Of a stretch of 64,000 nucleotides of DNA, positions 2,012-61,899 are shown piece by piece; the stretch's first letter is position 1, and each line of letters starts with the position of its first letter. Source of the DNA: Psammoneis japonica. Lineage: Eukaryota. The notes under the pieces were generated by a model. The model searched no databases and was not told where the DNA came from. It was given only the letters and a program-made list of their open reading frames with translations. The translations under genes and the position numbers were made by a program. The stretch spans positions 1 to 64,000 of the forward strand of contig QPGO01000052.1 in the NCBI GenBank assembly GCA_008632985.1, given 5' to 3'.

Positions 2012-2167
2012 ATGCTGCTGCAGTTCACTTCTGCCCAACCCACGCGACCTGACTAACATGCGTTGGGGCCAGAGCAGTGCGTGGTGCTGGTTGTTTTGCT
2101 TCTGACCATTCTGGTGAGGTTTCACAAGTTGTTCATCTGTGCATGTTGATGTTGTCCAATTCGAGGT

Positions 2168-13900: not shown

Positions 13901-14162
13901 TCTCTTGATTGAAGCTAGTCCAGTTCAGTTTGAAGCACACCGTGATTGCTTGTTAGCAAGCGCATCGCTACAGCAGTTCGGATCACCGCGAAGATCTCCT
14001 CTGGATTCAGACAACTACTATCCATTTTTCTATAAAACTGGAATTCTGACGTCATTGCCATTCATATATCATGTTGCAATGCAAGTATGGAACCCGCGTC
14101 GGCGCCCACCGTTCACTCGTGCTCGTGGTCGGCATCAGCTGCGCTAAAAATACGGGATGAGA

Positions 14163-18500: not shown

Positions 18501-21500
18501 CACTGTGTGAGTGAAGAAGCTTCCAAAAGGTGGTGCAATCAGCTGGGTGGAGTCATGCCAGAAAGCCAGCTCTGGGCATTCAGCTGTGGGGTTGTGCAGA
18601 ACAGCAGCTCTTTCTGTTCTGCCACTGCACAAGAAAAGCAGTGCACACTGTCATGTGTTGCTCTTCATCATTTTTCATTGGGCCTCCTGTCCTTGCATGG
18701 TTTGACTCTGACAGTGACAGAACAGCAAGTGAGAAACACACACACACCAGCAGCACAGCAACCACAGCTGTTGCACCAACTCTGCAAGCCACACTCACAA
18801 GGGCTCATCCTCAGATTGTGTCAATGAGGAGGGGGGGCAGCTGGCAAGTTTTGCCAGTGGTGCAGAACACAGAAACCTCTTGCAACTGGAAAATTCTTGC
18901 AACTCTGTCATCAGTGTGCCGCTGCCTGCCACAAAAGACAGCAGATTCTTGAGGTGCTGCAAACTTCTCTTCATCTTCACAGGCCCCTGTCAGGTGAAGT
19001 GTGTTGACCCCTCCTTGCACTGTCTTTCTTGAGAGTTGGCCAAACCAAAAAGAAGAACAAGACAGAGTGCATCAAGGACAAGACAAGTGCCAAGGACAGG
19101 GCAATGACTGACAGCTGGTGTGCCAACCACCACAGCAGGTGGTGGGTGAAGCAAGAGCCAGCCAATGCCAAACTGAAATTTTAGATTAAAGAGATGCAAG
19201 TGGGGCTTGGCTGCCATGGCAAAGGCATGGAAAGACCATGAAAACCAAGACATGAAGTGGACAAGGGAGGAGTTCTGTGAAGTTGTCAGCCAAAAACACC
19301 TTTTTGCTGGTGTGTTGGTTGAAAAGAGGCAAGTGGAGGCAAAAGGGAATCAGGGTCAGGGTCAGGAAAAGAGCACAACAGCAGAGGAACAAGGTGCAGA
19401 CCTGTGGACAGAGGGCAGAGGAAAATTGGCAAGCAGCCACCACTGTGTGGGAGAAATTCCCAAACCAGTTGTTGCACAATGTTGCTGTTTTTGCTGTGTG
19501 ATCATGTCTGAACTGCTGGACTGCAAATGGGGGTCCACCATGCTGCTGTAAAATGTCTCTTGCTGTGACTCATCAACATGTCTCCCTCAAAAACAGAGCC
19601 CATGATGTGAGTGGAAAATCAGGAAACACCATGGAACACACCTGGGTTTGCCACAGAAAACCTTCCAGGTTGGCTGGGCAGTGGAAGCCCAGCAGCATTT
19701 CTTAAATTGGGAAATCCCATGGATTGTTTGGCTTCATTGCAGACTTTCCAAAAGTGCTGCAGAGTGGTGCTGCAGGCTGCAGCAATTTGTCATTCTCTCC
19801 TCTGATGTGAGAACAACAAAACAGGGCTGAGGAGTGGTGGGCATTGCTGGTTGACCCTGGTGTGGTGCCTGTCTGGTCAGTTGGAGTGCCACTTGCTAAA
19901 AAGTGAAAGAAGAGCCTTGCCATGCCACATTGTTGGCTGTCTCAATGTTTCAGCTGGTGTGCCGTGTCTGACGGAGGTCCAGATTTTTGTTTGAATTGAT
20001 CATGATGCAGCCAGCCCTGAAAAACTCCATTCATAAAAGAAAGAGCCGCATCATTTGAAAGTGTTCAAGCAGGGTGAGAAAATTGTGCACAAGCAAAGCA
20101 CTTGAGCTTTTCAGTGTTGTTGCAGCACTTGCTGCTCAAGTTGCTGCTCCAGAAACACCGCAAAATGGAGTGGTGGGCTGCTTGGTTCCTGCAGCATGTG
20201 CGCAAATGCTGTTGAGGATGCTTGCAGCTTTGCTTCAAGTGCAAGGAGACTCCAAACCAGAGGGAAAGGAAGGATGAGCTCTCTGGCAATCTCTTGGAAC
20301 AACCATGGAGGCAACACAATGCCCACACTCACTGCTCAAAACATGGCAAGGTTTGTCATCAACTGACAGCCAGTTTTAGATGGTGGGAGTGGCTGGCATT
20401 AAATCTGATTTGAAGTTTGAGTGGACATGCACACAAGCTGTGTGACCAAAATGCAGGCCTTGCAAAAGAGACAAAAGTCCAGCCACACACATGTGCTCTG
20501 CGCACTGTGGTGAAACAAGAGTTGCTGCTGTGAAGCGCATGAGTGCAAATGTGAAATTTCATTTTGTGGCTTGGCATTTGTCAAAATGCAGGGGCCTCTG
20601 CCCAACAAAATGACAGGAAAATGACAACCTGACTGTGGAACTGTGTTTCATCCATGACAGCACAACACATGACATGCCTGAATGACTTGAGTGTGTTTGT
20701 TTGAGAGCAGCCGCATGTCTTTTCATTGGGATCTTGACTGCTGTTTTTACAATTTTTTTGTTGGCCATGATTTGGTGCAAAAGATCAAGTTCAATTTGTG
20801 GTTGCAAATGAGAATTGACAAACAAGCACAACACAACATTGAGCGCAACGAGCCTTTTGCCATGATGAACTTCGCTTTGCATCAACTCCGCTGTTGTCAA
20901 CTGCAAGTGGCCAGATCAGACACATGAGTTGACAGTGCAGCACACAGCCACAGTTGCCTCTTGCTCTCTGCACCTGTCTCCTTGCATCTGGCACTTTTTT
21001 GTGAAGAAAATGGCTGCTCTGGCTGAGACGTTGCTTGGCAACCATGATCATTTGTCAACAGGCTTCTGTGCTCCACAGCATGCTGCCCAATGTGTTTGAC
21101 GTGTCTTTTTCCACAACCAGCGGTGCTTCATTGTTTTTCAGCAAATTTGCTGTGGCTGTGGCTGCACTTGCCAACAATGTTTTTGAAATGTGAGCGGAGC
21201 ACACATCGCACAGTGAGTGTTGAGTGCAGCACCCCAAAAACCAGGCAGCAATGGCTTGTTTGTTCTTGCATGTGCTCATTTGATTTTTTCTCAAGCCTTG
21301 TGCCAGCTGCACTGGTTTGCAAATCTTCACCCTTGCAATGTGGAACATGACAGAGAACACTTTTCCATGATTGTTCACAACAACGCTCCAACTCCTGCGG
21401 TGTCATCTCGCCAACAGCCTCTGAGACAGTGGCGCCAAAGAGACCACACATTGGCTCCATTTTGGATGTGACAAAATGACATTTGATCTGTGCATTGTGC

Positions 21501-22090
21501 CTGCAACAAGGTGCATTGAGGGTGGTGCAATGGAGCTGACAGACAGTGTCCTTTCATTGTTTCTCCTGGACTTTTAAAGATGACATGAGCGGCACTTGCT
21601 TTGAGCAACCCAGCTGCAAGCAAATGTGTGCAAGCAACCCAGCAGCTGTCAAACAGCCCACCCAGCTTTCAAAAGCACAACAAACAAATGCAATGGAACA
21701 ACTGTCCAGCACACATCCCAGCAACTCACGTGTGTTGTCCTCAGTCATCGACTCAAGGCAAGCTTCATTTTTGAATTTTTTTGCTGAGCAGCAGTGGCTC
21801 CTGAAGGAAAGATGTGGATCCACTTGGTCAGCTCGAGCCCTGCCATGCTGCACTTTCCTAAAACACCAGTGCATTTTCCCTTTTCTCATGCTCAATGTGT
21901 GTGCAGAGCCACTGCACGCATTGACTCCTGTGCTCCCCCCCCCCATCATGTTTCTGCTCCTTTTGTGAGAGCCAGCCGTGCACCAACAGAGTTTGATTGA
22001 TGCTTTTCCCTGCTGAAAGAAGTCTTTGCCCATGATCTGGAGGTGCACCACACTGTTGGGTAGTCCACTCTGCTCCAGCAGCTGGGGGCC
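15600..22090. mobile_element. Heavily decayed repeat block, depleted of both TpA and CpG
   Basis: Several kb with very few TA or CG and saturated in TG/CA. Six-frame ORFs nearly lack Tyr. No family could be assigned. Confidence 0.6.
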
Positions 22091-30608: not shown

Positions 30609-30854
30609 CCTCCTCGTACCCAAGTTTAGATGGAGACGGACTGACTCAAACCGACCTCGCTCGATGACTATGACCTCTCGCTGGATCCGCGACGGAAGTA
30701 GGGTACTTCCAACTCAAGATGACTCGGTCTAGTCTTCTGACTGTGACCGGTCAAACTTCGGTTTTCTTTTCTCTCACTTTTCCAGCTTTGTTGGAACAGG
30801 AACCCTGATCATCGTGACTGGATCACTCAAGCTCGGAAAAGCATTCTTCTTTTT
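30609..30854 (+). repeat. Terminal repeat A1 (runs into N gap)
   Basis: Matches ~39063-39308 with 6 substitutions by hand alignment. Confidence 0.95.
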
Positions 30855-31034
30855 NNNNNNNNNNNNNNNNNNNNNNNNNNNNNNNNNNNNNNNNNNNNNN
30901 NNNNNNNNNNNNNNNNNNNNNNNNNNNNNNNNNNNNNNNNNNNNNNNNNNNNNNNNNNNNNNNNNNNNNNNNNNNNNNNNNNNNNNNNNNNNNNNNNNNN
31001 NNNNNNNNNNNNNNNNNNNNNNNNNNNNNNNNNN

Positions 31035-33330
31035 AAATCCTCGAGGCACAAGCGATGACATTTTGGGGGGTTGTGGTCATCCCCAGTCGGACATTGACAG
31101 GGCGGAGTTGGGGGAAGTCATTTCCCACCCTCCAGGAACTCACGTTTTGGAAGGAGACGCATCCCACCCGGTTCAGAGGGAAACCCGCTCGTCTCGGGTT
31201 GGTTTCTTTGGGCGGGATTTGTCAGGTAACATCGGAGGCACGGTCGAGTCGGAGAGGGAAGGTGCGTCTTCTTCGTCCTCGCATGTGCCTCGTTGTCGAA
31301 TCACCTGGCTGGAGGCCATTGGGGCACCCCGGTGCTCAGGGATCAAGGGCGGAGGAGCCACCTTCTGTCTCAAGAAGGCAAGCGAGTGCAATGTGAGGCA
31401 CAAGGGCAGCAAGATGAGTGTTCCGGCGTCGGGTGTGGTGGCAATCCTCAAGTCCCCGGACATGGGTTTTTGTCAACCCATCCCAAGTGGCGGGAACATG
31501 TCTGGTGGAGTGTTGGTCAAGTGGGAAGCCGAGTCGGACACACTGGCCGGTTGGCGGCAGAAATTCTTGGCACTGGGCAATGGTGAACCCTTTTCCACTG
31601 AGGACAAGGTCGAACCCGCCCTGAGGGAGCATGAAAGGGCGGCCGAGTTCAAGACACCGGCGCGGAAGCAGTGGCCGGAACCGTCAACCCTTCAAGAGGA
31701 TGCCGTGCTGGAGGGGTTCATGCCGCACAAGAAACGAATGCTCTCCACCCCGGCGCAGTTCCTGGCGGCAAACAAAAGTCCGCCCGCACTGGCCCGTGTG
31801 GTCCAGTCGACCGAGGATGGGTTGAGGCAAGCCGGGGAAGCACCAGCCAACTTTGGGGACAAAGCTGGCAGGCGATTCCATGCTGCGGAGTCCATGATTG
31901 AGATTCTAAGCTGGAAGCTGGATCAGCTCGACGCATCCATCGGGGAACCGACCCAGGGGTTTGATGAGGCTCTTCTTGCCCCTGCTCTTTGGGGTGCGCT
32001 GGCGAACGTTGCATCCCGGGAAGCCGGAACCCAATCTCCGGACCCAGTCGAGCGTGTCACACAAGTGGAGACGGGGTGGCGAAACCAATCTAACAATCTG
32101 GTGAGAACTTTCAACGAGAAGTTCCAACACATGCAAGATCGGATGGGATCGACGGCCACCCGCGCGGATCTGGAAAACCTGAAGAATGACATGCTTCGGG
32201 TGTGTGCACAGCTCACTTCAAAGGTCAGGTCAATCGAGTCCCAGTTTGGTTCGGGGTTTGCACCTCACGGCGCTTCATTCGATCAAGGGTCCGTGGAAGC
32301 AAGGGTCACACGCCTGGACCGCGCTGTGAGTGAGTTACGTGCAAAGTCAGACAAGTCTGCCATTGAGTTCTCGGGGGTTGGCGCATCATCCTACGAGGAG
32401 TGTCAAGCCTGGATGACACAGCATTTCCCCTCGAGGGCATGCGGGTGCTTGGCTGATGTCGTCTTGCTCTTGGACCGAATTAAGGGGATCGAGCCCACCG
32501 CTCTGCATCACTTTTTATCTCAGTGGGCCAAGCGAATGAGCATGAACATCGCCACCGAGGAAGACGCGCGAACTCTGGCGGGTTTTCAGCATCGCATGCC
32601 TCGGATCTTCGACTCAGGATCTGCGAAGTCGTCTCAGACCTTGGGTTTGCACCCCTCTTGCTTGGATAAAATCGAAACCCATGAACACTGGTCTTCGGGG
32701 AATGTCGGAACAAAGCACTTCATCGAGGGGAAGATCGCCACAACGGAGAGCGACATTGTGGAAGACATCAACCAACGTGTCAGACCGGGAACATTTGAAA
32801 GTCAGGCAGTCCGGGACGCATTGTCGAAATCGGTGGCATTTCTTCGGGCGCTAATTCAGTTTATGGACTCCACTTGTGCATCACTCACCGACCTGAGCAA
32901 GTTCTCCAAGAAGCAAGCGTGGTCCTTGACGACTAAATTGACTCACCGCATTTTCGAGGACATCCACAAGGCGCGCTCCGGGGTTTTTACCTCCATTTCC
33001 GGGACGGACCCAGATGCAGTGTGCAGCAAGATTTTGTGGGCGGTGTTTCGGACCCACGACATCATGGCAGAGTACACCTCTCTAGGATTTACCGACCACC
33101 CTTCTATGGCGTCGGAATGCGTCAAGTTTCTGGCTACAAACTCAGGATTCGAGGTGGTAACTGATTTGCAATCTTCGGTGCTGACGCTAACGGAGAAAGC
33201 CAAGAACGCTAGCTCAGAGGCTAAGTCAGCCCAGGCCCGAGGCGACTCGGCGCACGTTGAGCTGGGCAAATTGCGAACGGAAATTAAGGACCTGACTCGT
33301 CGGCTTAAGGCTCTGGAGAGCAAGAAGTGA
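31035..33330 (+). CDS. ORF1 gag-like protein of the YR retrotransposon (5' end in N gap)
   Basis: Long ORF with coiled coils, positioned before RT; only 2 Tyr in ~765 readable aa. Confidence 0.75.
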
Positions 33331-33441
33331 AATTCATGGGGAACGGAGGATACGGGGGAGGGCCAGGTCTCGTTTGATAGGCCGAATAACCTAAGGCACA
33401 TCATACGGGGCAGAAAGGCCTTCTGTTTTCAAGGATCTTGC

Positions 33442-36400
33442 TTGATTCTCGCCTCCGGTCCCCCAATCTGGCTCTTGTCCTTGCAACCAAAGGAATGGCC
33501 TGCTGTTCATTGCTGCTGCGACGACTCCCACTGGGGTTCTCTATCAGTGGAACTGTTTCGGAACCAATTGAATGCCTCCTTGGCACGGGTCTCATGGGCA
33601 AGGGTTGAACAACTGACCAGGCGGGTTGATGTTGTATTCGTGTCGGGGCCACCTTCGTTCCTTGAGTCCGCAGCTCATACAATGCGGTCGGGATCTTTGA
33701 TCATGATCCCTGTGGGAGCGTTTTCGCGTCGCAGTCTTCTAGGTTTAAACCAGTTACAGCGGCGGGACATTACACATGCGGTGGTGGGCGGTGTCACTTC
33801 CTTTCGGACTGCACTCTTCTGGCGGGGGGTTCCTACTCCGGTCTTTGATGGAGGCCTGCGGCGGTCCATTGGGCACATCATCGACTATAAGCTACCCGGG
33901 TCGCCATCGCCACAACACCCGAGTGGGGAATTTTACAATGAGGGCGACCATCTCAACCCACAGTTTCTGACCCGTCCAGTCGTGCACCCATCGTATCGGT
34001 CGCCGACAGGTTGGGTCACCCGTGCACCATCTGTGGATGAGATGTTGGCGGCCTGGGATTTTCCCCTGCGTTTCCGCATGCCTCAGGTACATCAGGCTTT
34101 CGAGCGGGGATTTCCTCTTGTCCCGTTGAATCTCCTCACACTTTTTGTGGAGGCGTTTGTTGATCACACGCCCCGGAATTCGTTACAACCTGGGGGCGTG
34201 GTGTGTGACAACACGGAGGTCGGGGTCCCGGTCCGCCAGGCCGGAACGTGGCTACCGACTCTCGGACGCCATTTACCCCACACTTGGATCGACGTATCCC
34301 TCATAACGGCGAAAGCTGCAAAGGGGGATGCGGCAGCCCCTCCTTTCCGGTTGTGGGATAAGAGGATCACTTTGATTTTCCCGGGGTCTGGCAAGGCTTT
34401 GCCAGCCCTTCGGGACTTGGCGCACCGGTGGTGGCGGCGAAAGACCCTTCAGTCCTTTCTGGGCCATCTGCGCCGGGAGTGTGGTCCGACTTGGGTCGCC
34501 ATGCTGGCGACACAACGCCGACGTTTTGGGGACGCCACCGGGCGTCTTCAGGGGGGGGTTTGCCGCCACCCTCCACTCCCACCCTTGCTTCTAGACGCAC
34601 ACCTTGGGACTGAGGTGTTGGCGCAAGTGTTGGACAGCTCCTGGTGGAGTTGGGACCGAGGTTCGTCTCTTTTATTCTGGCGGTGGCCCACTCCGGAACA
34701 GCGGGTGGGGGCTCGAGATGGGATCCAGACATTTGTCAAGGGCCCTCTCCCTCGCAATCGCCGATGGCAGAGAATCCGGGGGTCCGAGCACAAGATTCTT
34801 AGGATGGTGGACAAGATCCAAAAGGTCCGAGACCAAGGTTGCATCCATCGTGGGAGGGTGGTTAGTCTAACTGATTATTTTTGGGTCCCAAAAACCGTCC
34901 GTGTGGAACCCCAGAATGGTCGCTTGGTGGAAATCGTTGAAGACGTGCGAATGGTTTATAACGGAACCTCCTCGGGGTTGAACGACGCCCTCTGGGCACC
35001 CTCGTTTTTCTTGCCCACTCCTGCGTCGGTTCTGGGGTGCATGACTCGTGCTGCCTTTTCAGTGGATCTCGACCTGGGCGACATGTTTTTAAACTTCTTC
35101 ATGGATCCCAACATTCGGCCACATGCGGGGATCGACTTGACGCCTCTCAAGCCACATCTCGGGTCCCAGGAGTCGATCTCGACGGGCACGCCCTGGTTCA
35201 AGCATTGGAACCGTTTGTTTGTGGGGATGCGGCCCAGCCCTTGCTTGGCGGTGAGGGCATTTCATTGGGCTGATGAGATTGCCAGAGGCGATCCAAACCG
35301 ACTCTCCAATGTCATGGGATGCGACAAGCTGCTCCTAAACTTGCCAGGGGATCCCAACTTCCAGACGGAGAAACCATTCGTGATGAAGTGGAATTCTCGT
35401 CGCAAGGAAATTGCTGGCGACATAAAAACATTCGTTGATGACTTGCGCGGATTGGGGGCTAATGAGGAATCCGCCTGGCAAGTTGCTCACCAAATGGCCT
35501 CGCGGTTGCAGTGTCTTGGACTGCAGAATGCTGCCCGGAAGGTGCGCCCCCCCTCGCAGGTTGAGACCGGAGCCTGGGCTGGTGCCATTTTCCAAGTTAT
35601 CGATGGGGATGTTGCTCAGTCAGTTTCCCAGGCCAAATGGGATAAAGCCAAGGGCATCATTGCAGAACTGCTTGGTTTTTACGCCGGGCGTCCGGGGGGC
35701 TTCCTCCCTGCATTTGACTTTAAGGATCTGGAGCGGAAGAGGGGATTTCTAGTCCACCTTGCGATGACTTGCCCCTTTTTGACACCATTCCTTAAAGGAA
35801 TCCATTTGACCCTCGACTCCTGGCGACCAAATCGAAAGAAGGATGGTTGGGCGATGACTGCGAAAGAATTCGCAAGCTGGATTCACCACCTCGCTGAGAA
35901 GCAGGGCCTTGACCCGTCAGAGGTTGCTGAGGGGCTAAGGGATCAACCGCCCCCTCCGCAGGTCACGGCTGTCCCTCGTTTGTTCATGGATTTAACTGCC
36001 ATGTCCCGCGTCACGGAGTCTCCGACCCCTTCCACGGTTGTCATCCGGTCCTCAAAGATTGTCACTGTCCTCTGTGGCTTTGGGGATGCATCTGGAAAAG
36101 GCCTTGGGACCTCCCTGGAAGCAGCGGACGGAACCATCATCTTTCGGATTGGTGTGTGGGGCGATGATGATCTGGGGAACTCCTCCAACTGGAAAGAGTC
36201 ATCCAACACGGTGGACGCCATCCAAGAACTTGGGGAGCAGGGGGAATTGACCGGCGCGTGTTTGTTCTTTTTTGTGGACAACTCAGTTGCTGAAATGGCT
36301 TGGCACAAGGGCACCTCGACCAGCCCTCCACTGCTTGAGCAGGTCATTTGCTTGAAATCTTTGGAGGCTGAGTGTGGGATTAGGCCATGTCTCATGCATG

Positions 36401-37114
36401 TCTCGGGGGTGCGGATGACAGCTCAGGGTGCTGACGGAGTGTCTGGGGGAGTCTTGACCGAGGGTGTCATGAACAGAGCCAAGATGCTTTCGTTTGTCCC
36501 TCTCCATCTCGGAGCCACAACTCGGTCGGCTGCTCTCTTTGCCTGGGTTCAATTTTGGGCTGGGACTCCAGCTCCGGAACTGCTGACCCCCTTGGATTGG
36601 TGTCAGAAGGGTCATGACATTGCGGGGGTGGAGCTGCCCAGCCTGCGAAGCCATCGAAATGCCCCATTTCAGATCGGGCACGTGGGTCTGGGCCCCACCT
36701 CCAGCCGCGGCGAGAGCGGCCCTAGAAGAGCTCCGGATTGCAAGAATCAAGCGCCAGACATCGTTCCATGCATTCATCTGCCCGCGTTTAATGACTCCGG
36801 AGTGGCAGAAACAGTTGCACAAGGCGGCGGACCCAGTGTTTGCTGTCCCGGCTGGATCAAGGCCGTTCTGGCCAGGTGACATGTTCGAGCCCTTGCCAAT
36901 TGGCCTTCTTTTTCCGTTCGTCTCCTGCAGCCCTTGGCAGCTTCGGGGAACCCCGAAAATGCATGCAATGGAGCGGTCCCTGCGTCGAGTGTGGCCGGAT
37001 GCTACGGTGGACGAAAGGAATGTTTTTGCGCAAATTTTGTGCACAGTGTGGGAATCTGGCCGGCATGTCGGAAGGCATGGTGTCCAGGGTGCCATGCTTC
37101 GAGAGAAAGCATGA
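33442..37114 (+). CDS. Reverse transcriptase / RNase H ORF; frameshift at G-run ~36625
   Basis: DVRMVYNGT, DLDLGDMFLNF, GMRPSP, KTFVDD, GFGDASG, NWKE and FVDNS motifs; continues as WVWAPPPAAA...EEL in ORF 36614-37114. Confidence 0.9.
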
Positions 37115-38500
37115 CTTTCCGTCTGGGGGGGACTCTGGAGGACGACCCTCAAAACGACAACGCGCAATCTCTCGGGGGGGGACCGCCCAAGGCTGGACGA
37201 CAATGCTTGGCATCGGAAGCCTCAAGACAAAAACAAGTTTGTACGGGCTCGCGTGGGAGATCATCTGATGGTTGCCTTTGAGTGCGACACCTGTGCATTT
37301 CACAAGCTCCACCAGAGGGAGGCCCTGCCTTCATCACCTCGAGACGAGGTCGCTCTAGCGTGCACTTGGAGAGTGATTTTGGGCGCGTTTTGGAGCAGGG
37401 AATCGACAACAGTCGAAGCAAACGCGTCGAGAGTTGGGAGGGGCCTGGCCTCATCTGAGCGCCTGGGCCCAACGGGGCCTTACCTCGAGCCAGGCCCTCT
37501 CCCACCCTGTGATCACTGTGGACATGAAGTCGCTGTGCAGATCGTCTTGGCTTCGACGGCGGCGGGAAAACACTCGGAATCGTACACTCAGTTCGACACG
37601 ATCCGAAAATTGCGCACTGCTTGCTCCAACCAGGTGCGCGCATCGGCGGAGGCTAATTCGCGAGCTTTGGCATTGGGGGATTTGGAAGGCAAACAGCATC
37701 TGCGCATGTGCGAAGACCCGTGTGCTTCACTGTGGTTCCAGCGATTCATGACCGGATGCAAAAGACGGGTGGGCCAAGACTGGAGGCCTGACAGAGCAAC
37801 ATCGGTCGACGTCATGCAACATCTGTTGCCTCGGGTCGAGGAGAGGGCCCTCCGAGCCCCAGGAGAGGCAGAGAGATTCATTTGCCTTGCACGCGGATTG
37901 CACTTTGCGGCCAGTTACGTCTTGTCTCTTCGAGGTCCCGAAGGCCTGCTTGTGGACTTGGGGGCTCTTGTCAGACACCTCCCAAGACACGCGGATTATG
38001 TGGTCGTCCCTCTTTTGGGCCGAGTCAAGGGAGAGCATGGGGAGCGGCAGCACCTCCTCCCCAGTGTCAATGTCACCAGCTCAGGTGTCAACCTTCGTTT
38101 TTGGGTCGAAACGGCAGTCTCATTACACTGGGATCATCGGCGCACGCATGGACCAGCGATGTCAAATGTGGCGGGAAAGGTCTTGTCTACGAAAGAGCTC
38201 AACATTTTCTTGCATGAAGTCTTGGGAGACATCCATGAGGACCACCCAAGCCCATTCGCAGCGGACATCACCACGTTCTCTGACACACAGGACAAGCATG
38301 ATGTGAGTTGTTCGTTCAGACGGGGTTCGGACTTGCGTGCCATTGCTCAGAAGGTGCCAGAAGATGACATTGAAGTTGTCAACCGTTGGAAGAAGAAGGA
38401 AAGATCAGGTGCGGCACGACCCACACACAAAATGCGCCAGCACCATGCCGACATTACCCTTCTTTTGCCATCATTCCTGCGTCACACTAAGGCCATGTGA
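36934..38500 (+). CDS. Tyrosine recombinase, probably inactivated; frameshift at G-run ~37175
   Basis: SLRGPE (Arg I), LLGRVKG (Lys), SFRRG (Arg II), NRW. MRQHHAD has His where the catalytic Tyr is expected. Confidence 0.85.
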
Positions 38501-38719
38501 CTCGGGACGGTCGCGAGCCCTTGGCAACGCCAGGTCTCCGGAGGACAGTCTTCCAGCTTCCTGCTCTCCGGATCGATGTTTTTGGTGGCCACTACCCAGG
38601 ATTCTCATCGGGGGGATTGGAGCTCGACCCGTCTTATTCGGCCTCGGGAGTCAACAAGACGAGGTCTAGGACTGCAACGCAGCACAACACCTTCGACGGC
38701 TCCAGTTTTCGTACGGGAG

Positions 38720-39732
38720 AACTTGGTCTGGCGTGTCTTCATTCGAGGTGCTCACTTTACCCCCCAGTCACTGCCCAACGTCGCGAAATGCCGAAGGGTG
38801 TGATGCCAGGGGTTGGCTCTCGGAAACGCCCGAGGCACCAGTGCTCCGTTGAATTTCCGGAAGAGCCCCTGCACTGGTCCAACCCTGCAGAGGGTTTGGG
38901 TTTCTCCCACCCCCCCTTGTGCGGAGCAGAGCTTACACCGAAAGCCCTGCTCTGTGAGTCTCCTGAGCATCTTAAGGTTTTGTCACTTCTCAGTGGTTCT
39001 TGACTAGGATCAATTGAGATCTAGTCCGAAGCGGTCGTTTTTTGCTGAGTCAACACTCGGATCCTCCTCGTGCCCAAGTTTAGATGGAGACGGACTGACT
39101 CAAACCAACCTCGCTCGATGACTGTGACCTCTCGCTGGATCCGCGACGGAAGCAGGGCACTTCCGACTCAAGATGACTCGGTCTAGTCTTCTGACTGTGA
39201 CCGGTCAAACTTCGGTTTTCTTTTCTCTCACTTTTCCAGCTTTGTTGGAACAGGAACCCTGATCATCGTGACTGGATCACTCAAGCTCGGAAAAGCATTC
39301 TTCTTTTTACCCACCCACCACACCCTGGGATCCAGTTTTCGGCGGATCAAAGACAGGAGAAAAAACAAATTCGAGCTCGTTCGTGGGAAAACTTGGTCTG
39401 GCGTGTCTTCGTTCGAGGTGCTCACTTTACCCCCTAGTCACTGCCCAACGTCGCGAAATGCCGAAGGGTGTGCTGCTGGGGGTTGGCTCTCGGAAACGCC
39501 CAAGGCACCAGTGCTCCGTTGAATTTCCGGAAGAGCCCCTGTGCTGGTACAGGACCCTGCGGAGGGTTTGGGTTTCTCCCACCCCCCTTGTACGGAGTAG
39601 AGCTTGTGCCGAAAGCCCTGCTCTATGAGTCTCCTAAGTATCTTAAGGTTTTGTTACTTCTTAGTGGTTCTTGACTAGGATCAATTGAGATCTAGTCCGA
39701 AGCGGTCGTTTGCTGAGTCAATACTCGGATCC
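38720..39732 (+). repeat. 3' repeat block B1-A2-B2
   Basis: aacttggtctggcgtgtcttc...ctcggatcc occurs twice and flanks a second copy of A. Confidence 0.95.
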
Positions 39733-39995
39733 ACACGTACTGTACACTGTAGGCCCATACATAGAGAGTAGAAGTAGGAACTACCAGCGCAGGCTCGGAG
39801 TATGAATACAGTGTGGTAGCCCTACCGTACGTCGAGCGCGCTACCGGTATGTAGGCCCTAGCCCTAATCAAGTTTCGTTTTGTTTAGCTCTCTCTACTCT
39901 CTACTCTAGAGCTAGAGTAGAGAGTAGACTAGCTACTAGCAGTACCTAGAGTTAGCTACCTGGTACGGTACAGTACGGCAGCGCTGTAGTTTAGT
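39733..39995. promoter_or_regulatory. TpA-rich island
   Basis: gtaggccctagccctaa, ctctactctctactctagagctagagtagagagtagactagctactag, ggtacggtacagtacgg. Confidence 0.5.
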
Positions 39996-40279
39996 TCCTT
40001 ACTTGAGCGAGAAAGATAAACAAGAAGATTTAGGTAAGGTAGTTAGTCGCACTGGCTTTTGGCTCGGCACCAGGTGCTGCTTGCAGCAATGATGCCATTG
40101 CGTAATGGTGGCAAACATTTTAGACTGGTTCACTCCGGAGATGGCGTCCGGAGTGGAAACGGAGAGTGGAAGTTTCAGAGCCGGCACCAGGATTTTGTGC
40201 TTAGTCCAAGGCCTCCCTGAAAACATTAACTAGATTGCTGGCGTCACTGGTTTCATTCATTTACAGCAAAAACGACATA

Positions 40280-43200
40280 TTAATGCGGAATCCCGCCAGG
40301 CGGCGGCCACTCCCACACACTCTTATTCGTTTTAGTGTCAAAGAAATACCAACGTTTCTGACTCTTTGACCACACACAAATCCAGCCCTGAGGCAAGTCC
40401 ACTTGGGGCTTTTTCTCTTGCATCTGCATGTCCGGAGGTGAAGTGAGGGATTCGGTTTTCTTGGGCTTCGGAGGAGGCGGAGGAAAGCTGGGCTTCTGAC
40501 GCTTGGCTGCGGATTGCTCTAGCAAAGGCGGTGCTTGTTTCGCTGTCGGGGGTGGCGGCGGTGGCGGTGGTCTTCCTGAAGGAGGAGGTGGCTTTCGATG
40601 CTGAGGAGGTGGCGGTGGAACCGGCCGCGCCGTCACCTTCTTATCGCATGGTCCAGATTGCCTCCTCTGCACTGCACCTTCGTGAGTCTCGGTAGCTGCC
40701 CTTTGCCGTTTCGATTCAGGATTGCGCTCGGGTGTGGACTCCCTCTCGCGTTTCCTTGATGAGCCCTCATCGGAGTGTACATGCGAGCTACGCTTTCTGG
40801 TGGGCGGCAGTGCGTCCGCAAAGATAGCTTCCCCTTCCCCCTCCGCCGACGAGAACGTGTCATGAGGAGGCGAACCGGGTGATCTACGAGGATCTGCCTC
40901 CTCTTTCTCATGCTGTAGTGGTGGCCTTTGATTTGAGAAGATATCGGGAACAAGTGAATCGCCCCTCTTATCTTTGTAGGGATTACCAAAATTGACCATT
41001 AGCCGTGATCGTACTCTAGTTTGTACTGAATCCGAGAATTCTCCAGTCTTCAAATCGAAAAATGAGAGAGGCATAGCATCATCATCAACAGACCAAATCG
41101 GGGAGCCATCCGGCGCCGTCGTCGCCGCTGAGCCAGATGAATCGTTAGAGCCGTAGCCCACCACCGGAGCCCTGGACCAAAGCAGTCGCTCTCTAAAGTC
41201 GCCCATGCGCGTGGTTCTTGTCTGGTTCAGAGTTGACACACCCACCCCAGCGACAGAAAGCAGAGATTCATCCTTTGCACAGTGATTCGCCTTACAATAA
41301 TGCGCGTTGCTCCATCGTTGTTGACGCCCTCCACATGAAGGCCTCTAGTCGCCAACCCCGATCCCCCGAATATCCATCGCCTTCTAGACTCGTAGTAAGG
41401 TATAAGACAAGAGGCTGGAAGGGCGCCGAGTCTGTAAAACCCATGAAGATGTAGTGAGCAATACATGAAAATATTGCCATTATCTGCAACAGTGAAGAAT
41501 TCGACTTACACATCGACCGTCGTGTTCATTTCCCTGCCTTCCACAACACAGGTCGTTGAAGCTACATTGCTCGTAGCATCGCGCGCAGAGCTTTCATTCT
41601 TCGGCCTGTTCTTTCCAACCCGTTGCCGCCCAGCATGCCAGGGTGCAGGCATGTTTCGAATAGCAGCAAGAAAACTACTGGTCGAAGCCCTGGGATCATA
41701 CCGACCGTAGCCGATCACCACATTTGCGGTGCTCTTGAGTTGGCCTCCTCCTACTAGGCGCAACTCCGCCTCCTGTCTTTCGAGCCTCTCGTTCATTTCC
41801 TTCGCTGCTTGTTCTCCTCCCCGAATTTTCTGCAACATACCTTGGAGAAGCACTGCGACGCAAGAGCTTCAATTCCGTCGGTACTCAACAACGAATGTAC
41901 ACTTGTTGGTAGGATGGAGCGGAGACAACGCCTCAGTGAGATCTGGTAGTAAGGCGGAACCCGAAAAAGGTAAGCTCTAAACTCAGACCTCCAATGTTCG
42001 TCAAGCTGTACAAGTCTCGGGCCCGTGTTGGTCCCGGTTTGCTTGTGAATAAGCCCGGCGGTCGCCCCACTCCTGTTTGCTGAAGCACTTGAACACTCTT
42101 TCTCACCTGACTTCTTGATGGCGCGATGTTCTGCTTCCGCGGCTTTCACCAACAGAGGAAGCAAAATATGAGGTTCCGGAGGGAGCAACGTAAGAGTTGA
42201 TAATCGTGTCGAACCCTGCTTTGAGGATTCAACATTTTGGAGCGTCGCTGAGTTACGCGGGATGTGCAGGATGCCAATTCCAAGGAAGCTTTCTTCACCT
42301 TCTGACAGAGACGACCTACCGGCTCCTCGAACACAGACTGGAAGATACTCTCGCTGAGCTTTGATTGGCACTCCTCCTTTTCCATCTTGAGCAAGCCACT
42401 CACAAATATACGTGTCGCGCAGGAGTGCCGTTGCTTGGTTTTGATGGCCCGAAGCGATTGTAGAAGGCGATGCATGCCGGTTGGAAACAAGAAGCTGATC
42501 TAGTCGATTTATCGCCTTTATTACAAGCAAAGGGTCGAACATGCTTGACCCTACAACTTGATAGTGATGTGTATACGCAAGAGACGGCTGCGCCAGACGT
42601 GGTGGCAAAGTGTCGAGTTTCTTGCTCGGGAAAAAAGATTCGGGAATGCAGAAGATTGGTGGGTGGAACGTCTTAGGTTGCGGTCCCAAGGTCGTCTGTA
42701 CTTGGTTATACGGTACATAAAGAAGCATTGCTCGGTGAACTGACGCATGTTCCGCCGAATCAATCGACCGGAAGCAACAGATTGGACCTCCATTAACGAA
42801 TGAGGCACATATACCCGGTGCCTGCCTCAAGGGGGCGGTAGTTTGAGACTGTGTCACAGGACGTTGGTCCAGTGGGTCCAGTATCGGGAGAACCGAAGGA
42901 CGCGGAGGAGCCATAAGCTTGATCAAGAGCTTCGTCGTTTGAGAAAGCGACGTGGCGGATTTGAGGAGAGTGTGGCGCCCCCCTGTGACCTCGCACAGCG
43001 CTTTCAGTGATGAATGCAGATACTGAGTCGACGATACACCTTCTTTTGCACCAACGCATAAACAGAATATTCTTTGGTCCCATCGAAATGGCTCTTTGTA
43101 AAACTCTCGAAGATGCGAAGTCCCAACCTGTAATTGAAGAGAGCCTCCTCCATCAGAGGGTGGCAGTCGCAGACACTCCCCGTCAGTGACCAAGACAAGG

Positions 43201-43883
43201 CATGCCGGCTGGAGAGCATGAACCGCAGCACTCCCACCTCCGGATGTGCGCATTGCCGGTGATGGCAGCCTTCCCATTCCAAAGTTCTCCGTCGACCGAT
43301 ACTGCAAACGGTATCGAGAAAGTAAGTGGAGTCCAGCAGAGAGGGCCTTGTTTAATCCAACGGCTCCACCTCCACCTTCCGGAAAAGGCACACGCTGAGG
43401 CTGAGCTCCTGCTGTAGCGTTACCCGGTGGTTGCCAAACAGCCGCTTGAAGTTGTTTTAGCTCACGGTCAAAGCCCCCCTGGTTACTGGCCTGCATTGTT
43501 GCAGAAGCTTGTTCTCCTGGGTGATCGCTTGTTGACGAGGGATCCATCGAGTCTCCATATCCCACCAATAAACGACCTCCAGCACCACAGGCAGCAGTAA
43601 CAGGATGCTCGGAATGCTGCCGACTGGTGGAAAGAAGGAGAAACTGGTCTTGGGAACAGAAACCAAGCCCCAGGTTATGAAGTGAGTTTTGCATTTGCGT
43701 CGTCTCCTGCTGCAACAGTAGGTTATGTTCCATAACCCGTTTATTGAGACCTTTCGCAAGGCTCTCGACTGCCATTTTCGCTAAGTCTAATCGAGACATA
43801 CCCTTGGAGACTGCCGACGAGGCCTCTTGGGACACGGGCTTGCTCATGGATGGCGACGTATCGACCACAAACACCACAATCAT
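40280..43883 (-). CDS. INTS6: Integrator subunit 6-like VWA protein with Pro-rich region and C-terminal WW domain; one intron (~41432-41509), two apparent 1-nt deletions (~41835, ~41312)
   Basis: VFVVDTSPSM, RLDLAKMAVE, ENFGMGR and EPFRWDQRIF motifs. ORFs 41793-43883, 41506-41853, 41227-41466 and 40280-41245 chain into one protein ending LPQGW...KRWYFFDTKTNKSVWEWP. Confidence 0.78.
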
Positions 43884-44179
43884 TTTGAGGGCACAACTGC
43901 TGGCAAAACGATGAAGTCCAAATCCGGTGGGTTTCAGGTTAACAGTGACCCCAGCTATTGTAGTCAGGTTTGAACCCTGTCGATCATATCGTCAATTTTC
44001 TGCGAACGGTGGTGCCCCGGGGCGGCCAGTTCATTGCATCAAGCTAACAAAGTGCTCAGTCAGTTATGTCGAATGTCGCCCATGGCGTGCCTGCCGGCGC
44101 GCGGCGCAATCTTGAAGAATCTGTCCTCGAGAGCTACCGGGTGCTGTACCGTTAGCGAGGAGGAGTGTCGTTGAAGGCA

Positions 44180-45876
44180 TTTCAAAGACTCATTGCCCTT
44201 TCGAAGACGCGGCGGCGGGTGCCACCGGTGTTGTTGAAACACAGGCTGCTTGAGCCTGTGGTTGACAGGGCTGACCTTCACTGCGGAAAAATGTTGGCTC
44301 TGCTTTTGGTCATTCTTGTGAAGAGCCAAGAGAAGCCCAGCGCCAGTGTGTTTCTTCACTCTGCAGCAGCAGGAGGCAAGCACAGAGAGGGACAAACAAG
44401 AGCGACAGCTGTGCCAAAGCGCGCAAGTGGCTCGAAACAAGAAGAAAGCCTCACCTCAGGGAGCCCCCCACCAGTTTTCCTGATGCCCTGCCAGCCAGCC
44501 AGCTGGCCAAGGGCAGCCAGGACAAAGAGCACCTCTCTCACACATGAGCGCTGCTGGCGGTGGGCCGGCCTCAAGTGGGGGGCGTGTGGCGCTGCCACTG
44601 CACGACCACCCCCTCTGTGCTGCCACAGCGGCTGGTGCGGTGCGCTGCCTGCCCTTCTGCCACCTGCCACTGGCCAAAACATGCAGCAATTTTTCAAGGC
44701 CAAAGCCAAGGATCTGCGTTAGAGAACATGAAACAAGGCCGCAATGTGGGGTTTTGCTGGCTTGCCCAAGTTTCAAGTTCAAGGTCAGCTTGGGCACAGA
44801 GCTCACAAGAAGAGCTGGCACTGGCACCAAGCGTGCAGCGCACCCACCACATGGGAGCACGGCACACTCCACCAGCAGCTCTTGACTTTCCCTGCACAGC
44901 CCTTGCGCAAACATGAGCCACCCAAAGAGCAAGATTGCATTGCCAAGCAAAAGATCACTCCGCCAGGCTCCACAGGTGCCTCCACACTTTTCAAAACTGT
45001 CAGAAGCTTTCCAACACATGCTGCGCTAGATTCCCAAACAGCGCGCCGGACAATCTCAAAACATGCATGAAACCCAGGGCACACATTTTTTCTGCACGCA
45101 AGAGCTTTCCCCAATGTGAACAGTTGCTGCAATGCTTCTGGTCATGGAACAGGGCAGAGTTGCTGCGCACACTGCCGCCCACCTCCAGTGCAGCGGCGGG
45201 TGCCCCAAGTTTTCATCATCTGGCTGCCCCAGTGAACCCAGCAAGACCCCAGTCCTGTGACGTGCTGGCTCCAGCTTCCAAAAGATGCTGCTGCAGATGT
45301 GGTGCTTGCCACTTTCAGAAATCTGCAAGGAAGTCCAAGGCCCAAAACTTTCAACCAACCTTGAGATGGCTGGCAGCAGCAGCACACGTGCGCACACACT
45401 CTGCTGCAGACAATTTTGATGTGCAGGAAAACCAAGCTCACTTTGACCGTGTTCACAGTTTGGGAACAATGTGCTGGCAACCCAAAAGCTTGCCAGTGAG
45501 ATGACACCTCTTGCACACAAAACTCACTCAACGCTGCCTTTTTTGTCTTGCTTGGACAACTTTCATGTGGAGACCACCAAGCTTTGGCATTTGCAGGGCC
45601 CTGCCACCTGGGCTGCCCTCTTGCACAGCCAAATTGCTGTGCACTGTGCACCATCATCTGACGTGGCATGGCTGGCTGCCCTTGGTGACAAGCCTTCGCT
45701 GCTCACACCCAGGAAAATGGTGCGGCCATCTGCAGCGAGGTCAACAGCTCAGAAGGCTTGTCAGCCACATGCCCTTGGACCCATGCGACCCTGTGCAAAA
45801 GAGCCGCTGGCTGCTGTGTGTTGCGCCTTTTGCGATGGCATGGTGTCCTCTGTGATGCAGCAATGATGGGGAGTTG

Positions 45877-45909
<33 letters not shown>

Positions 45910-46800
45910 NNNNNNNNNNNNNNNNNNNNNNNNNNNNNNNNNNNNNNNNNNNNNNNNNNNNNNNNNNNNNNNNNNNNNNNNNNNNNNNNNNNNNNNNNNN
46001 NNNNNNNNNNNNNNNNNNNNNNNNNNNNNNNNNNNNNNNNNNNNNNNNNNNNNNNNNNNNNNNNNNNNNNNNNNNNNNNNNNNNNNNNNNNNNNNNNNNN
46101 NNNNNNNNNNNNNNNNNNNNNNNNNNNNNNNNNNNNNNNNNNNNNNNNNNNNNNNNNNNNNNNNNNNNNNNNNNNNNNNNNNNNNNNNNNNNNNNNNNNN
46201 NNNNNNNNNNNNNNNNNNNNNNNNNNNNNNNNNNNNNNNNNNNNNNNNNNNNNNNNNNNNNNNNNNNNNNNNNNNNNNNNNNNNNNNNNNNNNNNNNNNN
46301 NNNNNNNNNNNNNNNNNNNNNNNNNNNNNNNNNNNNNNNNNNNNNNNNNNNNNNNNNNNNNNNNNNNNNNNNNNNNNNNNNNNGTGGTGTGTGTGTTCTT
46401 GCCCTCTCTGGAGCAGAAAATGGAGCACCCCCTTTTAAAAAGAGACCCACATCAAGTTTTGCTTGGTGGTCTTGGGCACAAACTTTGCATGGTTGGAGCT
46501 CCCATCAAAGGTCCTGTGAGCATCATTTTTTGTGAGAGGGCAAGGACCTTTTTTTGTTGGGAACACTTCAAGGGGACCAAACAAATGGAGCTTTGCAAAA
46601 CAACCTGCACTCTTGCACTCGCAGTGGTTGTTCTCTCAGTGCAAAAAGGAGTCTCAGAGGGGCTGCACCTGGCCTCTGAGGGAGCTGATGAGGGGCTCAC
46701 ATTTTGAGCTTGTTGCCTCACTTGCTTGCCAGCTGCACTGCAGCATGCCTTAGAGTGTGCCACTGTGATTGTAAAAGCAGTGCTAGGTTGTGAGCAGCTG
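44180..46800. mobile_element. Decayed TpA-depleted repeat block containing an N gap
   Basis: TA nearly absent; Cys/His-rich spurious ORFs; unclassified. Confidence 0.5.
45879..45909 (+). repeat. (TG)n microsatellite at gap edge
   Basis: About 15 TG units run into the N gap; gtgtgtgt resumes after it. Confidence 0.9.
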
Positions 46801-47493
46801 AGCTGCTTTCACATGCACAGAGGCAACACATTTTGTACGACGGAGCACGCGGCATGTGCGCGTGAAGATGGCGGCTTACTCCACACTTTCCACTCTAGAG
46901 CGGCTAGAGTCATTGACTTCAATGACAGCTGCAGTGGTGCGTCACTCTGCTTTTGAAAGGCATGCTGTAAGTCAAGAGATTCCAGCTTCAGCCAAACATT
47001 TCAAATGGCACGCTTCGACTACCTTTGCTTCTCATTAGTAAAAGTTCGAATCAAAACCTTCATCATCATGCATTTGGCTAGAAACTATCGCTAGATACTT
47101 GAGCTGTTGCACAAATGAGTGCCAGTGTGCTTAGCTCCCCATCTTCTGAAACCAAAAGTCATGACAAATCCAACTCGTTGTTTTGATCCTCGTCAATCGC
47201 CACCTTTTTCCACAGCGGTTCATTCCGTCCATGTAGTCCTCGCTTCATCCATTGAATGCTGAACAATTTGAGAAAATTGCCATCAATCTCAAAGTAATAT
47301 CATCGTCCAATAGACTACACGCGCCACCAATTCCGCTTCTTTCTGCGCGCTTGCTCAGTTGGTAGGTCTACCATGAGATGGATCCTGAATGACCCAAAAA
47401 ATCTTTGAAGAATAATTGTCTTGCTTCGGCTTCAGAAGACCGGCACTCGCATCGACGCTTTTCCATATCCAAGACATATGTTTCTCTTCTATC

Positions 47494-61180: not shown

Positions 61181-61899
61181 CACCTTGTCTTCACAGGGCA
61201 AAACAAATCAAATTCGGTGACCTTGCTGCCAGAGAGAATTCGGCTGCTTAACATGATAGTTTGACTTGGTGCTGCTAGAGGAGTGGTTTGAGTGGGTCTG
61301 AGACTTGTCTTTGCATGAGGTTTTTCTACGCCGATGCCGAGAGATGATCTGTCAGAGGACATGGATGCACCGCAGTGATTCGAATGGATGCACAAGAGAG
61401 CCGCAACCATCGTGCTGGTCAACCGACGGCATTTTAGTGACAGATTATAAACAGGTGACAAACACACATGCTGCAGATGCCGCGATCGGCACAGTCGAGA
61501 AGCGCTTTGTCTTGTCACCAAGAGGACAGGTTCGTTGTGCCTGCATGCTGTACCGAGTCGAAAATTGATAATTTGTGCAGTTCTTTTATCATGAACATTC
61601 TAATTCAGTGCCAAAACAACTCCTTGGAAAGTTGTCGCCGCATGGCAGGACTTCGTTTCCTGATGTTAGCCTTGGCGGGAGGAATGTTGAAGGCTCTCTC
61701 CAGTCATCCCAGCAGCACTTTGTGCACCCACATTTTCGCAGAATGAATGGAAATTCAAAACATGCAAAGCCATCCAATTGTCATCAGTGGCAGCGGAAAT
61801 GTCTGGCAATGAATGCGCTTTGTGTGTCTCGAAGCTGTCTGGGTGCGTCAAGCGTGGCATCAAGGTCAACTCGAGCGACGACGTGGAACGAGCATGATG

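Follow-up and report, generated by a model that had tools for sequence, protein, structure and literature searches.

The 64,000-nucleotide stretch of Psammoneis japonica DNA analysed here (assembly GCA_008632985.1, contig QPGO01000052.1, positions 1 to 64,000 of the forward strand; hereafter the window) holds a single copy of an element of about 9.1 kb (30609-39732) which, judging from its layout and from the predicted folds of its proteins, is a tyrosine-recombinase retrotransposon. Tyrosine recombinases require a C-terminal Tyr nucleophile, and at the corresponding position the recombinase of this copy encodes His. We consider it very likely that the nucleophilic residue, Tyr444, was lost through a hypermutation directed at TpA steps (T followed by A on the same strand) that swept the interior of the element. 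The sequence itself, the conservation of the column, the fold, the dinucleotide pattern and the substitution spectrum of the repeat pairs are the observations on which this reading is built. Three features stand at its centre:

37115..38500, + strand: main open reading frame (ORF) of the tyrosine recombinase, 461 codons from stop to stop, ending in a TGA stop
38444..38446, + strand: His444, CAT, at the nucleophilic Tyr position according to structural mapping, Tyr in 119 of 119 homologues
38483..38485, + strand: His457, CAC, in the last helix, where another invariant Tyr is found (119 of 120 homologues)

Codon 444 is a CAT in frame with the ORF and follows a CAC codon (His443). The peptide around it reads ...KMRQHHADITLLLPSFLRHTKAM* and the end of the ORF peptide reads ...SFRRGSDLRAIAQKVPEDDIEVVNRWKKKERSGAARPTHKMRQHHADITLLLPSFLRHTKAM, with the SFRRG motif encoded at 38312-38326 and the NRW motif at 38381-38389; none of the 17 codons downstream of His444 is a Tyr codon. 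The original prediction, which had noticed a CAT at 38444-38446 after these two motifs and no later Tyr, was thus exact as a description of the sequence. It had also taken the site for that of the catalytic Tyr, and the relatives bear out a Tyr at this position. In an alignment of 121 sequences, column 444 is Tyr in each of the 119 homologues that cover it, which excludes active members with His at this column, and among 80 metagenomic loci encoding recombinase relatives, the 71 that cover the column carry TAT (35), TAC (34), TGT (1, locus L044) or CAC (1, locus L073), that is, a Tyr codon at 69 of 71. A Tyr codon as the ancestor is consistent with these counts; the TAT that had been proposed in particular is presumed, both Tyr codons being present among the relatives. 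The second invariant Tyr column lies 13 residues past column 444.

The loss extends to the other Tyr positions of the element. Recombinase alignments comprised a first one of 30 sequences and the one of 121 (A4). The recombinase has six columns with Tyr conserved at 80% or more, and all of these read His here (CAT or CAC), against changes at 25 of 170 other conserved columns (Fisher p = 1.9e-5), and the 30-sequence alignment gives 6/6 against 23/174. At the 11 columns with a Tyr majority, the recombinase has Tyr once, His eight times, Cys once (TGC) and Glu once. At the 13 such columns of pol, the ORF that precedes the recombinase in the element, Tyr is kept twice and replaced by Cys (6), His (2) or Phe (3), with 137 of 458 other majority columns changed (p = 9e-5). 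Over both proteins, 3 of 24 Tyr-majority columns are still Tyr and 17 are His or Cys, and when strongly conserved columns are pooled, Tyr is changed at 10 of 10 and other residues at 73 of 436 (p = 3e-8). Both replacements are products of a transition at TpA, which turns TAY (Y, pyrimidine) into CAY for His or into TGY for Cys. The Tyr content is accordingly low, with 0.87% in the recombinase compared to a homologue median of 2.79% (minimum 1.91%), and 0.51% in pol compared to 2.31% (minimum 1.35%). Counted as codons, Tyr makes up 2/764 in ORF1, 6/1182 in pol and 4/461 in the recombinase; three host ORFs of the window have 15/732, 19/849 and 20/471. A variant genetic code in which CAY stands for Tyr was considered and is excluded, since the host ORFs use TAT and TAC at 2-4%.

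Further changes at conserved columns of the recombinase would fit the same loss of TpA if their reconstructed ancestors are right, namely I229T (ACA), L380P (CCA), I325V (after GGT) and N396D (after a former TAT), and R85W (TGG), R399C (TGT) and S407L (TTG) would fit a loss of CpG. The lost Tyr residues are not divided in the same way in the two proteins, with 6 Cys (TGY) vs 2 His (CAY) in pol and 1 Cys vs 8 His in the recombinase (Fisher p = 0.015), a split that suggests editing in patches, each confined to one strand.

The element is ordered A1, ORF1, pol, recombinase and B1-A2-B2, A and B being direct repeats that each occur twice:

30609..30854, + strand: A1, outer left terminal repeat, 97.6% identical to 39063-39308, cut by an N gap at 30855-31034
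30733..33330, + strand: ORF1, gag-like by position only, crossing the N gap and ending in TGA, TpA observed/expected ratio 0.21
33331..36879, + strand: pol ORF (reverse transcriptase and RNase H by the fold of its model), 1182 codons from stop to stop, 56 homologues
36608..37114, + strand: C-terminal part of pol in the next frame, with a 1-bp insertion in the G run near 36622-36627
37021..37190, + strand: Cys-rich N-terminal extension of the recombinase, in another frame than the main ORF, with a 1-bp insertion in the G8 run 37173-37181
38708..39064, + strand: B1, inner repeat downstream of the recombinase, 91.6% identical to B2
39063..39308, + strand: A2, inner copy of A1, TpA ratio 0.14
39380..39732, + strand: B2, outer right terminal repeat, TpA ratio 0.78

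At the DNA level, the element is depleted in TpA and enriched in CpA and TpG. The observed/expected ratio of TpA is 0.17 in the recombinase ORF and 0.30 in pol, and the repeats A1 and B1 have 0.38 and 0.35, respectively. The mutated tract extends over 31035-39308 with ratios of 0.14-0.36, falls to 0 in the 71-bp spacer between A2 and B2, and has a sharp end near 39310-39428. The flanking host genes, coding for a methyltransferase and an INTS6-like protein, show ratios of 0.52 and 0.56, and the right flank of the element reaches 1.36. This TpA-rich flank (39733-40050) contains many GTAC, CTAG and TAGAG motifs.

The two repeat pairs record the process inside one insertion. Their core of 572 columns (A1/A2 and B1/B2) differs by 25 substitutions, of which 23 are transitions and 2 are transversions, and all 23 transitions interconvert TA or CG with CA or TG. 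By class, 12 set TA against CA or TG, 6 fall in CA-versus-TG pairs, 5 set CG against CA, and the last 2 are the transversions. In three adjacent pairs, one repeat copy reads CA and the other TG, as if both came from TA (or CG). At 11 of the 12 sites where a single copy has TA, that copy is an outer repeat (A1 or B2), opposite CA or TG in the inner one; TA persists in A1 at 3 core sites that read CA or TG in A2, and in B2 at 8 sites that read CA or TG in B1. Since the Tyr columns and the TpA deficit provide the polarity, TA is the base step that is being lost.

The TpA steps left in the element (31035-39310) follow a pyrimidine in 73 of 95 cases (77%), vs 214 of 534 (40%) in the host ORF regions, and they are asymmetric between strands (TTAC 16 vs GTAA 2; CTAC 8 vs GTAG 0). 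This context could reflect a mutator preference for a purine before TpA, or the composition of the ORFs alone.

The conversion of TpA into CpA or TpG can turn TAA only into TGA or CAA and TAG only into TGG or CAG, and it makes no stop from a sense codon. The four stops that bound the ORFs of the element are all TGA, and no premature stop is present in the approximately 2400 codons of its three ORFs, which remain open because a change of this type cannot produce one. The proposal that the mutator would wreck Tyr codons without creating stops is therefore upheld, on the side of Tyr by the Tyr columns, the repeat pairs and the TpA deficit, and on the side of stops by the genetic code, which forbids the passage from sense to stop.

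The following course of events would account for these patterns. In intact members, a Cre-like site made of Arg273, Glu276, Lys305, Arg399, Arg402, Trp425 and Tyr444 would operate, with Tyr444 attacking the DNA phosphate. The codon of Tyr444, presumably TAT, would have become CAT by a T to C change at its TpA step, leaving an enzyme without nucleophile, as a process turning TpA into CpA or TpG swept the interior of the element; this would be a change of A to G on one strand or the other, most simply by deamination of adenine. Because every Tyr codon contains TpA, Tyr would be hit most reliably of all amino acids, giving His or Cys. Stops would only be removed (TAA, TAG) or turned from TAA into TGA, so that a dead element may keep long open frames. 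Decay of CpG into TpG or CpA would act alongside (R85W, R399C, S407L), and the process probably acts on integrated DNA. The original prediction had made the TAT to CAT change responsible for the loss of integration. Tyr is indeed lost at the site of the nucleophile, but not as the single cause, since the same copy carries Cys399, five further His at conserved Tyr columns and two frameshifts; several changes thus inactivate it, the loss of Tyr444 among them.

That the ORF 37115-38500 is a tyrosine recombinase, by descent and fold and not as a functional enzyme, is indicated by structure prediction. Its AlphaFold2 model, built on 121 sequences, has a predicted local distance difference test score (pLDDT) of 87.1 and a predicted template modelling score (pTM) of 0.74. 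With this model, the best rows of Foldseek are Cre, XerH, lambda integrase (Int) and other integrases at probability 1.0, with a best E of 2.2e-3 and thus no match at E of 1e-3 or below. Aligned with VIA-align, 99 of 430 chains among the Foldseek candidates reach Z of at least 8. The best is the integrase 3nkh_A of methicillin-resistant Staphylococcus aureus (MRSA; Z 16.0, root-mean-square deviation 2.7, 168 residues aligned), Cre (5crx_B) has Z 14.5 over 237 aligned residues (model 58-424 vs Cre 54-314) with both domains matching, and among the 50 VIA-align matches listed, all are tyrosine recombinases, recombinase-like phage repressors or topoisomerase IB.

Searches by sequence found many relatives of the protein, with 419 homologues at E of 1e-3 or below among 8000 scored candidates, the best being 52% identical; those that bear a name come from the diatom Fragilaria crotonensis. 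Pfam gave no family for the protein at E up to 1 and no recombinase-related match for 30 family members at E up to 10. A search of PDB sequences gave nothing at E up to 10, a search of PDB with a 30-sequence profile gave no recombinase, and when the 121-sequence profile was aligned by hhalign with Cre or lambda Int, the probability was 0.1. The family (P0001-P0120 among the 419 matches) is invisible to Pfam, has Arg for the His of the HxxR motif and a 19-residue spacer between Trp and Tyr, and carries at its N terminus a conserved Cys-His region (FECDxC / DHCG).

Superposition on known enzymes places the remainder of the predicted active site as follows:

37931..37933, + strand: Arg273, catalytic Arg I (Cre R173), intact, Arg in 119 of 120 homologues, with Glu276 at +3 as in Cre
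38027..38029, + strand: Lys305, catalytic Lys (Cre K201), intact, Lys in 120 of 120 homologues
38309..38311, + strand: Cys399, TGT, at the invariant Arg of the family (120 of 120 homologues) and at Cre H289 of HxxR
38318..38320, + strand: Arg402, catalytic Arg II (Cre R292), intact, Arg in 119 of 120 homologues
38387..38389, + strand: Trp425 of NRW (Cre W315), intact, Trp in 119 of 120 homologues

The four Cre alignments stop at model residue 424 against Cre 314, or at 425 against 315. The translated cre gene confirms R173, E176, K201, H289, R292, W315 and Y324, and the residue letters of lambda Int were checked as well. Setting W425 on W315 brings C399 and R402 exactly onto H289 and R292, with spacings of 3 and 23 in both proteins, and the local motifs around R273/E276 and K305 correspond (LSLRGPE vs TLLRIAE in Cre; GRVKG vs GRTKT). 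The seven catalytic positions are spaced 3/29/94/3/23/19 here vs 3/25/88/3/23/9 in Cre. As to the nucleophile, the alignment with Tn1549 Int reaches model residue 440 against residue 375, and a PDB title names its Y379F mutant, which leads to 444; lambda Int reaches 442 against 340, so that Tyr342 would also fall on 444; and Flp reaches 460 against 360, its nucleophile, which we take to be Y343, corresponding to model residue 443. Modelling of the active site had been proposed as a check of the original prediction, and the AlphaFold model puts the nucleophiles of Cre, lambda Int, Tn1549 Int and Flp at about residues 443-445, a stretch in which column 444 is the sole invariant Tyr of the family. 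According to the model, the catalytic set of the family is Arg, Glu, Lys, Arg, Arg, Trp and Tyr, with Arg at the usual His of HxxR. The present copy retains R273, E276, K305, R402 and W425 and is altered at Cys399 and His444, Cys399 being probably a CpG-type change from CGT to TGT.

The remainder of the element agrees with a retrotransposon. Pfam matches neither ORF1, an ORF of 865 codons that spans the N gap, nor pol. The sequence profile of pol gave a weak match to the reverse transcriptase (RT) of Moloney murine leukaemia virus (MMLV; E 0.26). The AlphaFold model of pol (pLDDT 78.6) retrieves with Foldseek the RTs of MMLV (best E, 1.1e-13), cauliflower mosaic virus (CaMV), Ty3 and human immunodeficiency virus (HIV), with at least 500 matches at E of 1e-3 or below. 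Because a pol of RT fold, a recombinase and split direct repeats occur in one unit, the element is classed as a tyrosine-recombinase retrotransposon. At an identity of at least 80%, 1239 contigs of the public run X1 (Logan contigs) match it, which makes the family multi-copy where this DNA is present; in run X2, no contig aligned to the element. A search for repeats in four long metagenomic loci, which span at most 6 kb on either side of the recombinase match, found one pair only, in L065 (7409-7541 / 8977-9109).

ORF1, pol and the N-terminal extension of the recombinase share one frame, with a single TGA between each (33328-33330, 36877-36879), and a TGA at 37112-37114 bounds the C-terminal part of pol. 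The end of pol overlaps the start of the recombinase in different frames, an arrangement shared with P0027, a fusion protein of Fragilaria. Two frameshifts interrupt this copy. In tblastn alignments, the pol homologues P0121, P0122 and P0124 change frame near 36620-36630, and the homologues of the N-terminal extension P0027, P0037 and P0120 do so near 37172-37190. X1 copies without the base at 36624 make up a depth of 219.9/361.8, and those without the base at 37174 a depth of 191.7/287.3.

Several points weigh against the loss of Tyr444 by TpA-directed hypermutation. The TAT ancestor and the polarity at 38444 are reconstructed from relatives only about 50% identical. The mapping of the Tyr was taken from the ends of alignment ranges, the loop 432-446 of the model has a lower pLDDT of 73-80, and there is a second invariant Tyr (457), also His in this copy. 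The assignment to the recombinases rests on predicted structure, as the sequence methods give it no support. In the 30-sequence alignment, 29 conserved recombinase columns are changed, and 16 of these changes belong to neither the TpA nor the CpG type; ordinary divergence is thus also present. Both frameshifts fall within G runs; they are either true insertions of 1 bp or errors of the assembly at homopolymers. Finally, the 25 differences within the closest metagenomic pair (L044/L047, 99.5% identical) include only 5 of the TpA type.

The same TpA edits might have been made before integration by an adenosine deaminase working on the RNA or cDNA intermediate of the element, the copy being then born dead. 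Restriction of the ADAR or APOBEC type edits such intermediates in animals, the element replicates through RNA to judge by the RT fold of pol, its Tyr changes are patchy and strand-coordinated (p = 0.015, as above) in the way single-strand bursts would give, and the outermost repeats A1 and B2 are largely spared. We nevertheless hold this course to be unlikely. A1/A2 and B1/B2 differ at TpA sites inside one integrated copy, an argument that is weak, since it depends on a model of how split-repeat elements replicate; unrelated blocks of the window carry the same signature down to a TpA ratio of about 0, which points to a chromosomal process; and in the chlorarachniophyte Bigelowiella natans, such changes are reported to arise in integrated single-copy DNA during clonal growth (10.64898/2026.01.13.699255). 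Ordinary neutral decay of an old dead copy, without any process specific to TpA, would agree with the 16 of 29 changes of other types and with a TpA ratio that is somewhat low across the whole window (0.5-0.9 in host regions). It is improbable in view of the change of 6/6 and 10/10 conserved Tyr columns vs 15-17% of the others, of the concentration of 23 of 25 repeat-pair substitutions at TA, CG, CA and TG steps with 2 transversions in 572 columns, of the open frames over some 2400 codons, and of a TpA ratio of 0.17 where the recombinase genes of the 80 metagenomic relatives have mostly 0.5-0.8.

That the protein still functions, with its nucleophile elsewhere or as a domesticated DNA-binding derivative comparable to the Crypton-derived DUF3504 genes, is hardly credible. 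An ORF open for 461 codons would speak in its favour, as would the existence of domesticated recombinase domains without catalytic Tyr (PMC3212892). The invariant Arg399 is lost, though, His replaces five other conserved Tyr, a frameshift affects the N-terminal extension and Tyr is absent beyond residue 444; the ORF is part of an element bounded by repeats, with copies at 80% identity or more in the 1239 X1 contigs, and the mutation spectrum alone predicts open frames, for which selection is not needed. Nearly as implausible is the supposition that the cell does not use CAT at all, owing to an error of assembly or sequencing or to C-to-U RNA editing that would restore UAU. The assembly is gapped, with three N runs in the window, and both frameshifts fall in G runs, but the same T to C or A to G change recurs at 17 of 24 Tyr-majority columns and in the repeat pairs, which random error would not do, and the host ORFs of the window use TAT and TAC normally, in the proportions given above; these arguments concern error and speak neither for nor against RNA editing.

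Hypermutation of TpA may have touched other members of the family. The TpA ratio of the recombinase genes is lowest in the metagenomic locus L073 (68-1182; 0.28), where the six conserved Tyr columns read His, His, His, Ser, His and Cys; in L034 (1287-2030; 0.36), the four that are covered read Cys, His, His and Cys, and neither locus has an in-frame stop. The two are 88% identical over 613 bases and may belong to a single lineage, so that the same replacement of Tyr by His or Cys is found in at least one other lineage of the family in marine metagenomes. The pairs available for substitution spectra (L034/L008, 80% identical; L073/L006, 74%) give spectra blurred by divergence.

Elsewhere in the window, five blocks (1001-5000, 9001-14000, 16001-22000, 44001-47000 and 60001-64000) have TpA ratios of 0.00-0.33, CpG ratios of 0.02-0.86 and CpA and TpG ratios of 1.3-2.1, and the cores of the blocks at 9-14 kb and 16-22 kb go down to TpA of at most 0.09 and CpG of at most 0.38. 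Bins with host genes have 0.44-0.92 and 0.72-1.26, respectively. The blocks are complex sequence and not simple repeat; a BLAST of the window against itself detected no mutual similarity between them, and Pfam gave no hit above threshold for ORFs of at least 220 aa in three of them. The blocks may represent old mobile DNA driven to saturation by the same process together with CpG decay. One TpA-free block includes a perfect (TG)15 microsatellite (45879-45909) that adjoins an N gap of 474 bases (45910-46383). The host genes around the element carry ordinary Pfam domains. The INTS6-like gene (41796-43991) is closest to those of the pennate diatoms Cylindrotheca, Nitzschia, Pseudo-nitzschia, Fistulifera and Fragilaria, with a best match 69% identical, and on the minus strand at 40280-43991 it encodes a C-terminal WW domain, an arrangement (PF25462 + PF00397) common to many diatom homologues.

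What we describe is a recently reported kind of mutational process, met in another lineage and on mobile elements of another class. No report of TpA hypermutation or of tyrosine-recombinase retrotransposons in diatoms was found in the open-access literature and bioRxiv. The chances seem to us about even that diatoms run a TpA-specific A to G/T to C hypermutation on mobile DNA, a mirror image of the repeat-induced point mutation (RIP) of fungi by which Tyr codons and the stops TAA and TAG are erased. The window presents it in graded stages, from the element, with TpA ratios of 0.14-0.36 (2 transversions in 572 repeat columns), to the five blocks of about 24 kb, in which TpA is about 0 and CpG near 0. 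If this is true, the process published for a chlorarachniophyte in 2026 would be widespread in the clade of stramenopiles, alveolates and Rhizaria (SAR) and would target retrotransposons, and it may proceed patch by patch, coordinated by strand, and favour TpA steps preceded by a purine. If confirmed in diatoms, a newly described type of genome defence would be known not only from one chlorarachniophyte but also from a major group of primary producers of the sea.

Some consequences are practical. The 461-codon recombinase and the 1182-codon pol are dead copies that look alive, and gene finders and transposon annotators based on open frames will miscall such copies because the mutation spectrum cannot make stop codons. 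Conserved Tyr columns and repeat pairs within one insertion constitute an internal read-out of the mutator that can be applied genome-wide. Since every Tyr codon contains TpA, enzymes that depend on Tyr are predicted to lose an essential residue to a TpA-directed mutator. The recombinase family itself, with its 419 matches, a Cre-like predicted fold and Arg replacing the His of HxxR, has so far gone unseen by Pfam.

The closest known process is that of B. natans. Hypermutation in its mutation-accumulation lines is concentrated in an integrated giant virus and a virophage, two regions that hold 231 of 302 nuclear single-nucleotide mutations; 230 of these 231 are A to G or T to C, and all 230 hit TpA (10.64898/2026.01.13.699255). 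Genome-wide, windows poor in TpA and rich in CpA + TpG occur in clusters, coding sequences depleted in TpA are enriched in reverse transcriptase and DDE domains, and an ADAT2-like adenosine deaminase is proposed as a candidate (10.64898/2026.01.13.699255). As described there, both cases share hits on TpA only, leading to TpG or CpA according to the strand, a local action that spares adjacent host genes, and a depletion of TpA coupled to an enrichment in CpA + TpG. They differ in the host, here a diatom, in the target, here a tyrosine-recombinase retrotransposon, and in the evidence, which came there from a mutation-accumulation experiment and is comparative here. Loss of CpG joins that of TpA in the present window and is not among the changes reported for B. 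natans.

Fungal RIP likewise consists of point mutations targeted to a given dinucleotide, by which mobile or repeated DNA is inactivated in situ. RIP makes TpA from CpA by C to T changes and creates stop codons. Here, on the contrary, TpA is destroyed, stops cannot arise, and the outer repeat copies are less affected than the inner ones; RIP was thus tried as an explanation and excluded, the polarity being opposite, with TpA depleted, CpA and TpG enriched and zero premature stops.

Among the retrotransposons, split direct repeats define PAT, Ngaro and VIPER, with an internal pair downstream of the recombinase in Ngaro and VIPER (PMC4157794). The present element resembles what is described there in that an ORF for RT and RNase H is followed by one for the recombinase, and in its split repeats of the A1-B1-A2-B2 type with the internal pair downstream of the recombinase. 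It differs in that RT, RNase H and recombinase all go unrecognised by Pfam, in the Arg at the first position of HxxR, in a spacer between Trp and Tyr that is 10 residues longer than in Cre, and in the Cys-rich N-terminal extension that overlaps the end of pol. The methyltransferase domain present in DIRS and PAT and absent in Ngaro and VIPER was not detected by Pfam in pol, where Pfam matches nothing at all.

With Cre, XerH, lambda Int and Tn1549 Int, the modelled protein shares the two-domain fold and Arg, Glu, Lys, Arg and Trp at matching positions and spacing; its sequence has no similarity to that of Cre detectable by hhalign, and this copy has neither the Tyr nor the residue at Cre His289. 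The Crypton-derived DUF3504 proteins similarly combine a recombinase fold with the lack of a catalytic Tyr; they are conserved single-copy host genes (PMC3212892), whereas the protein described here belongs to one frameshifted copy of a multi-copy element.

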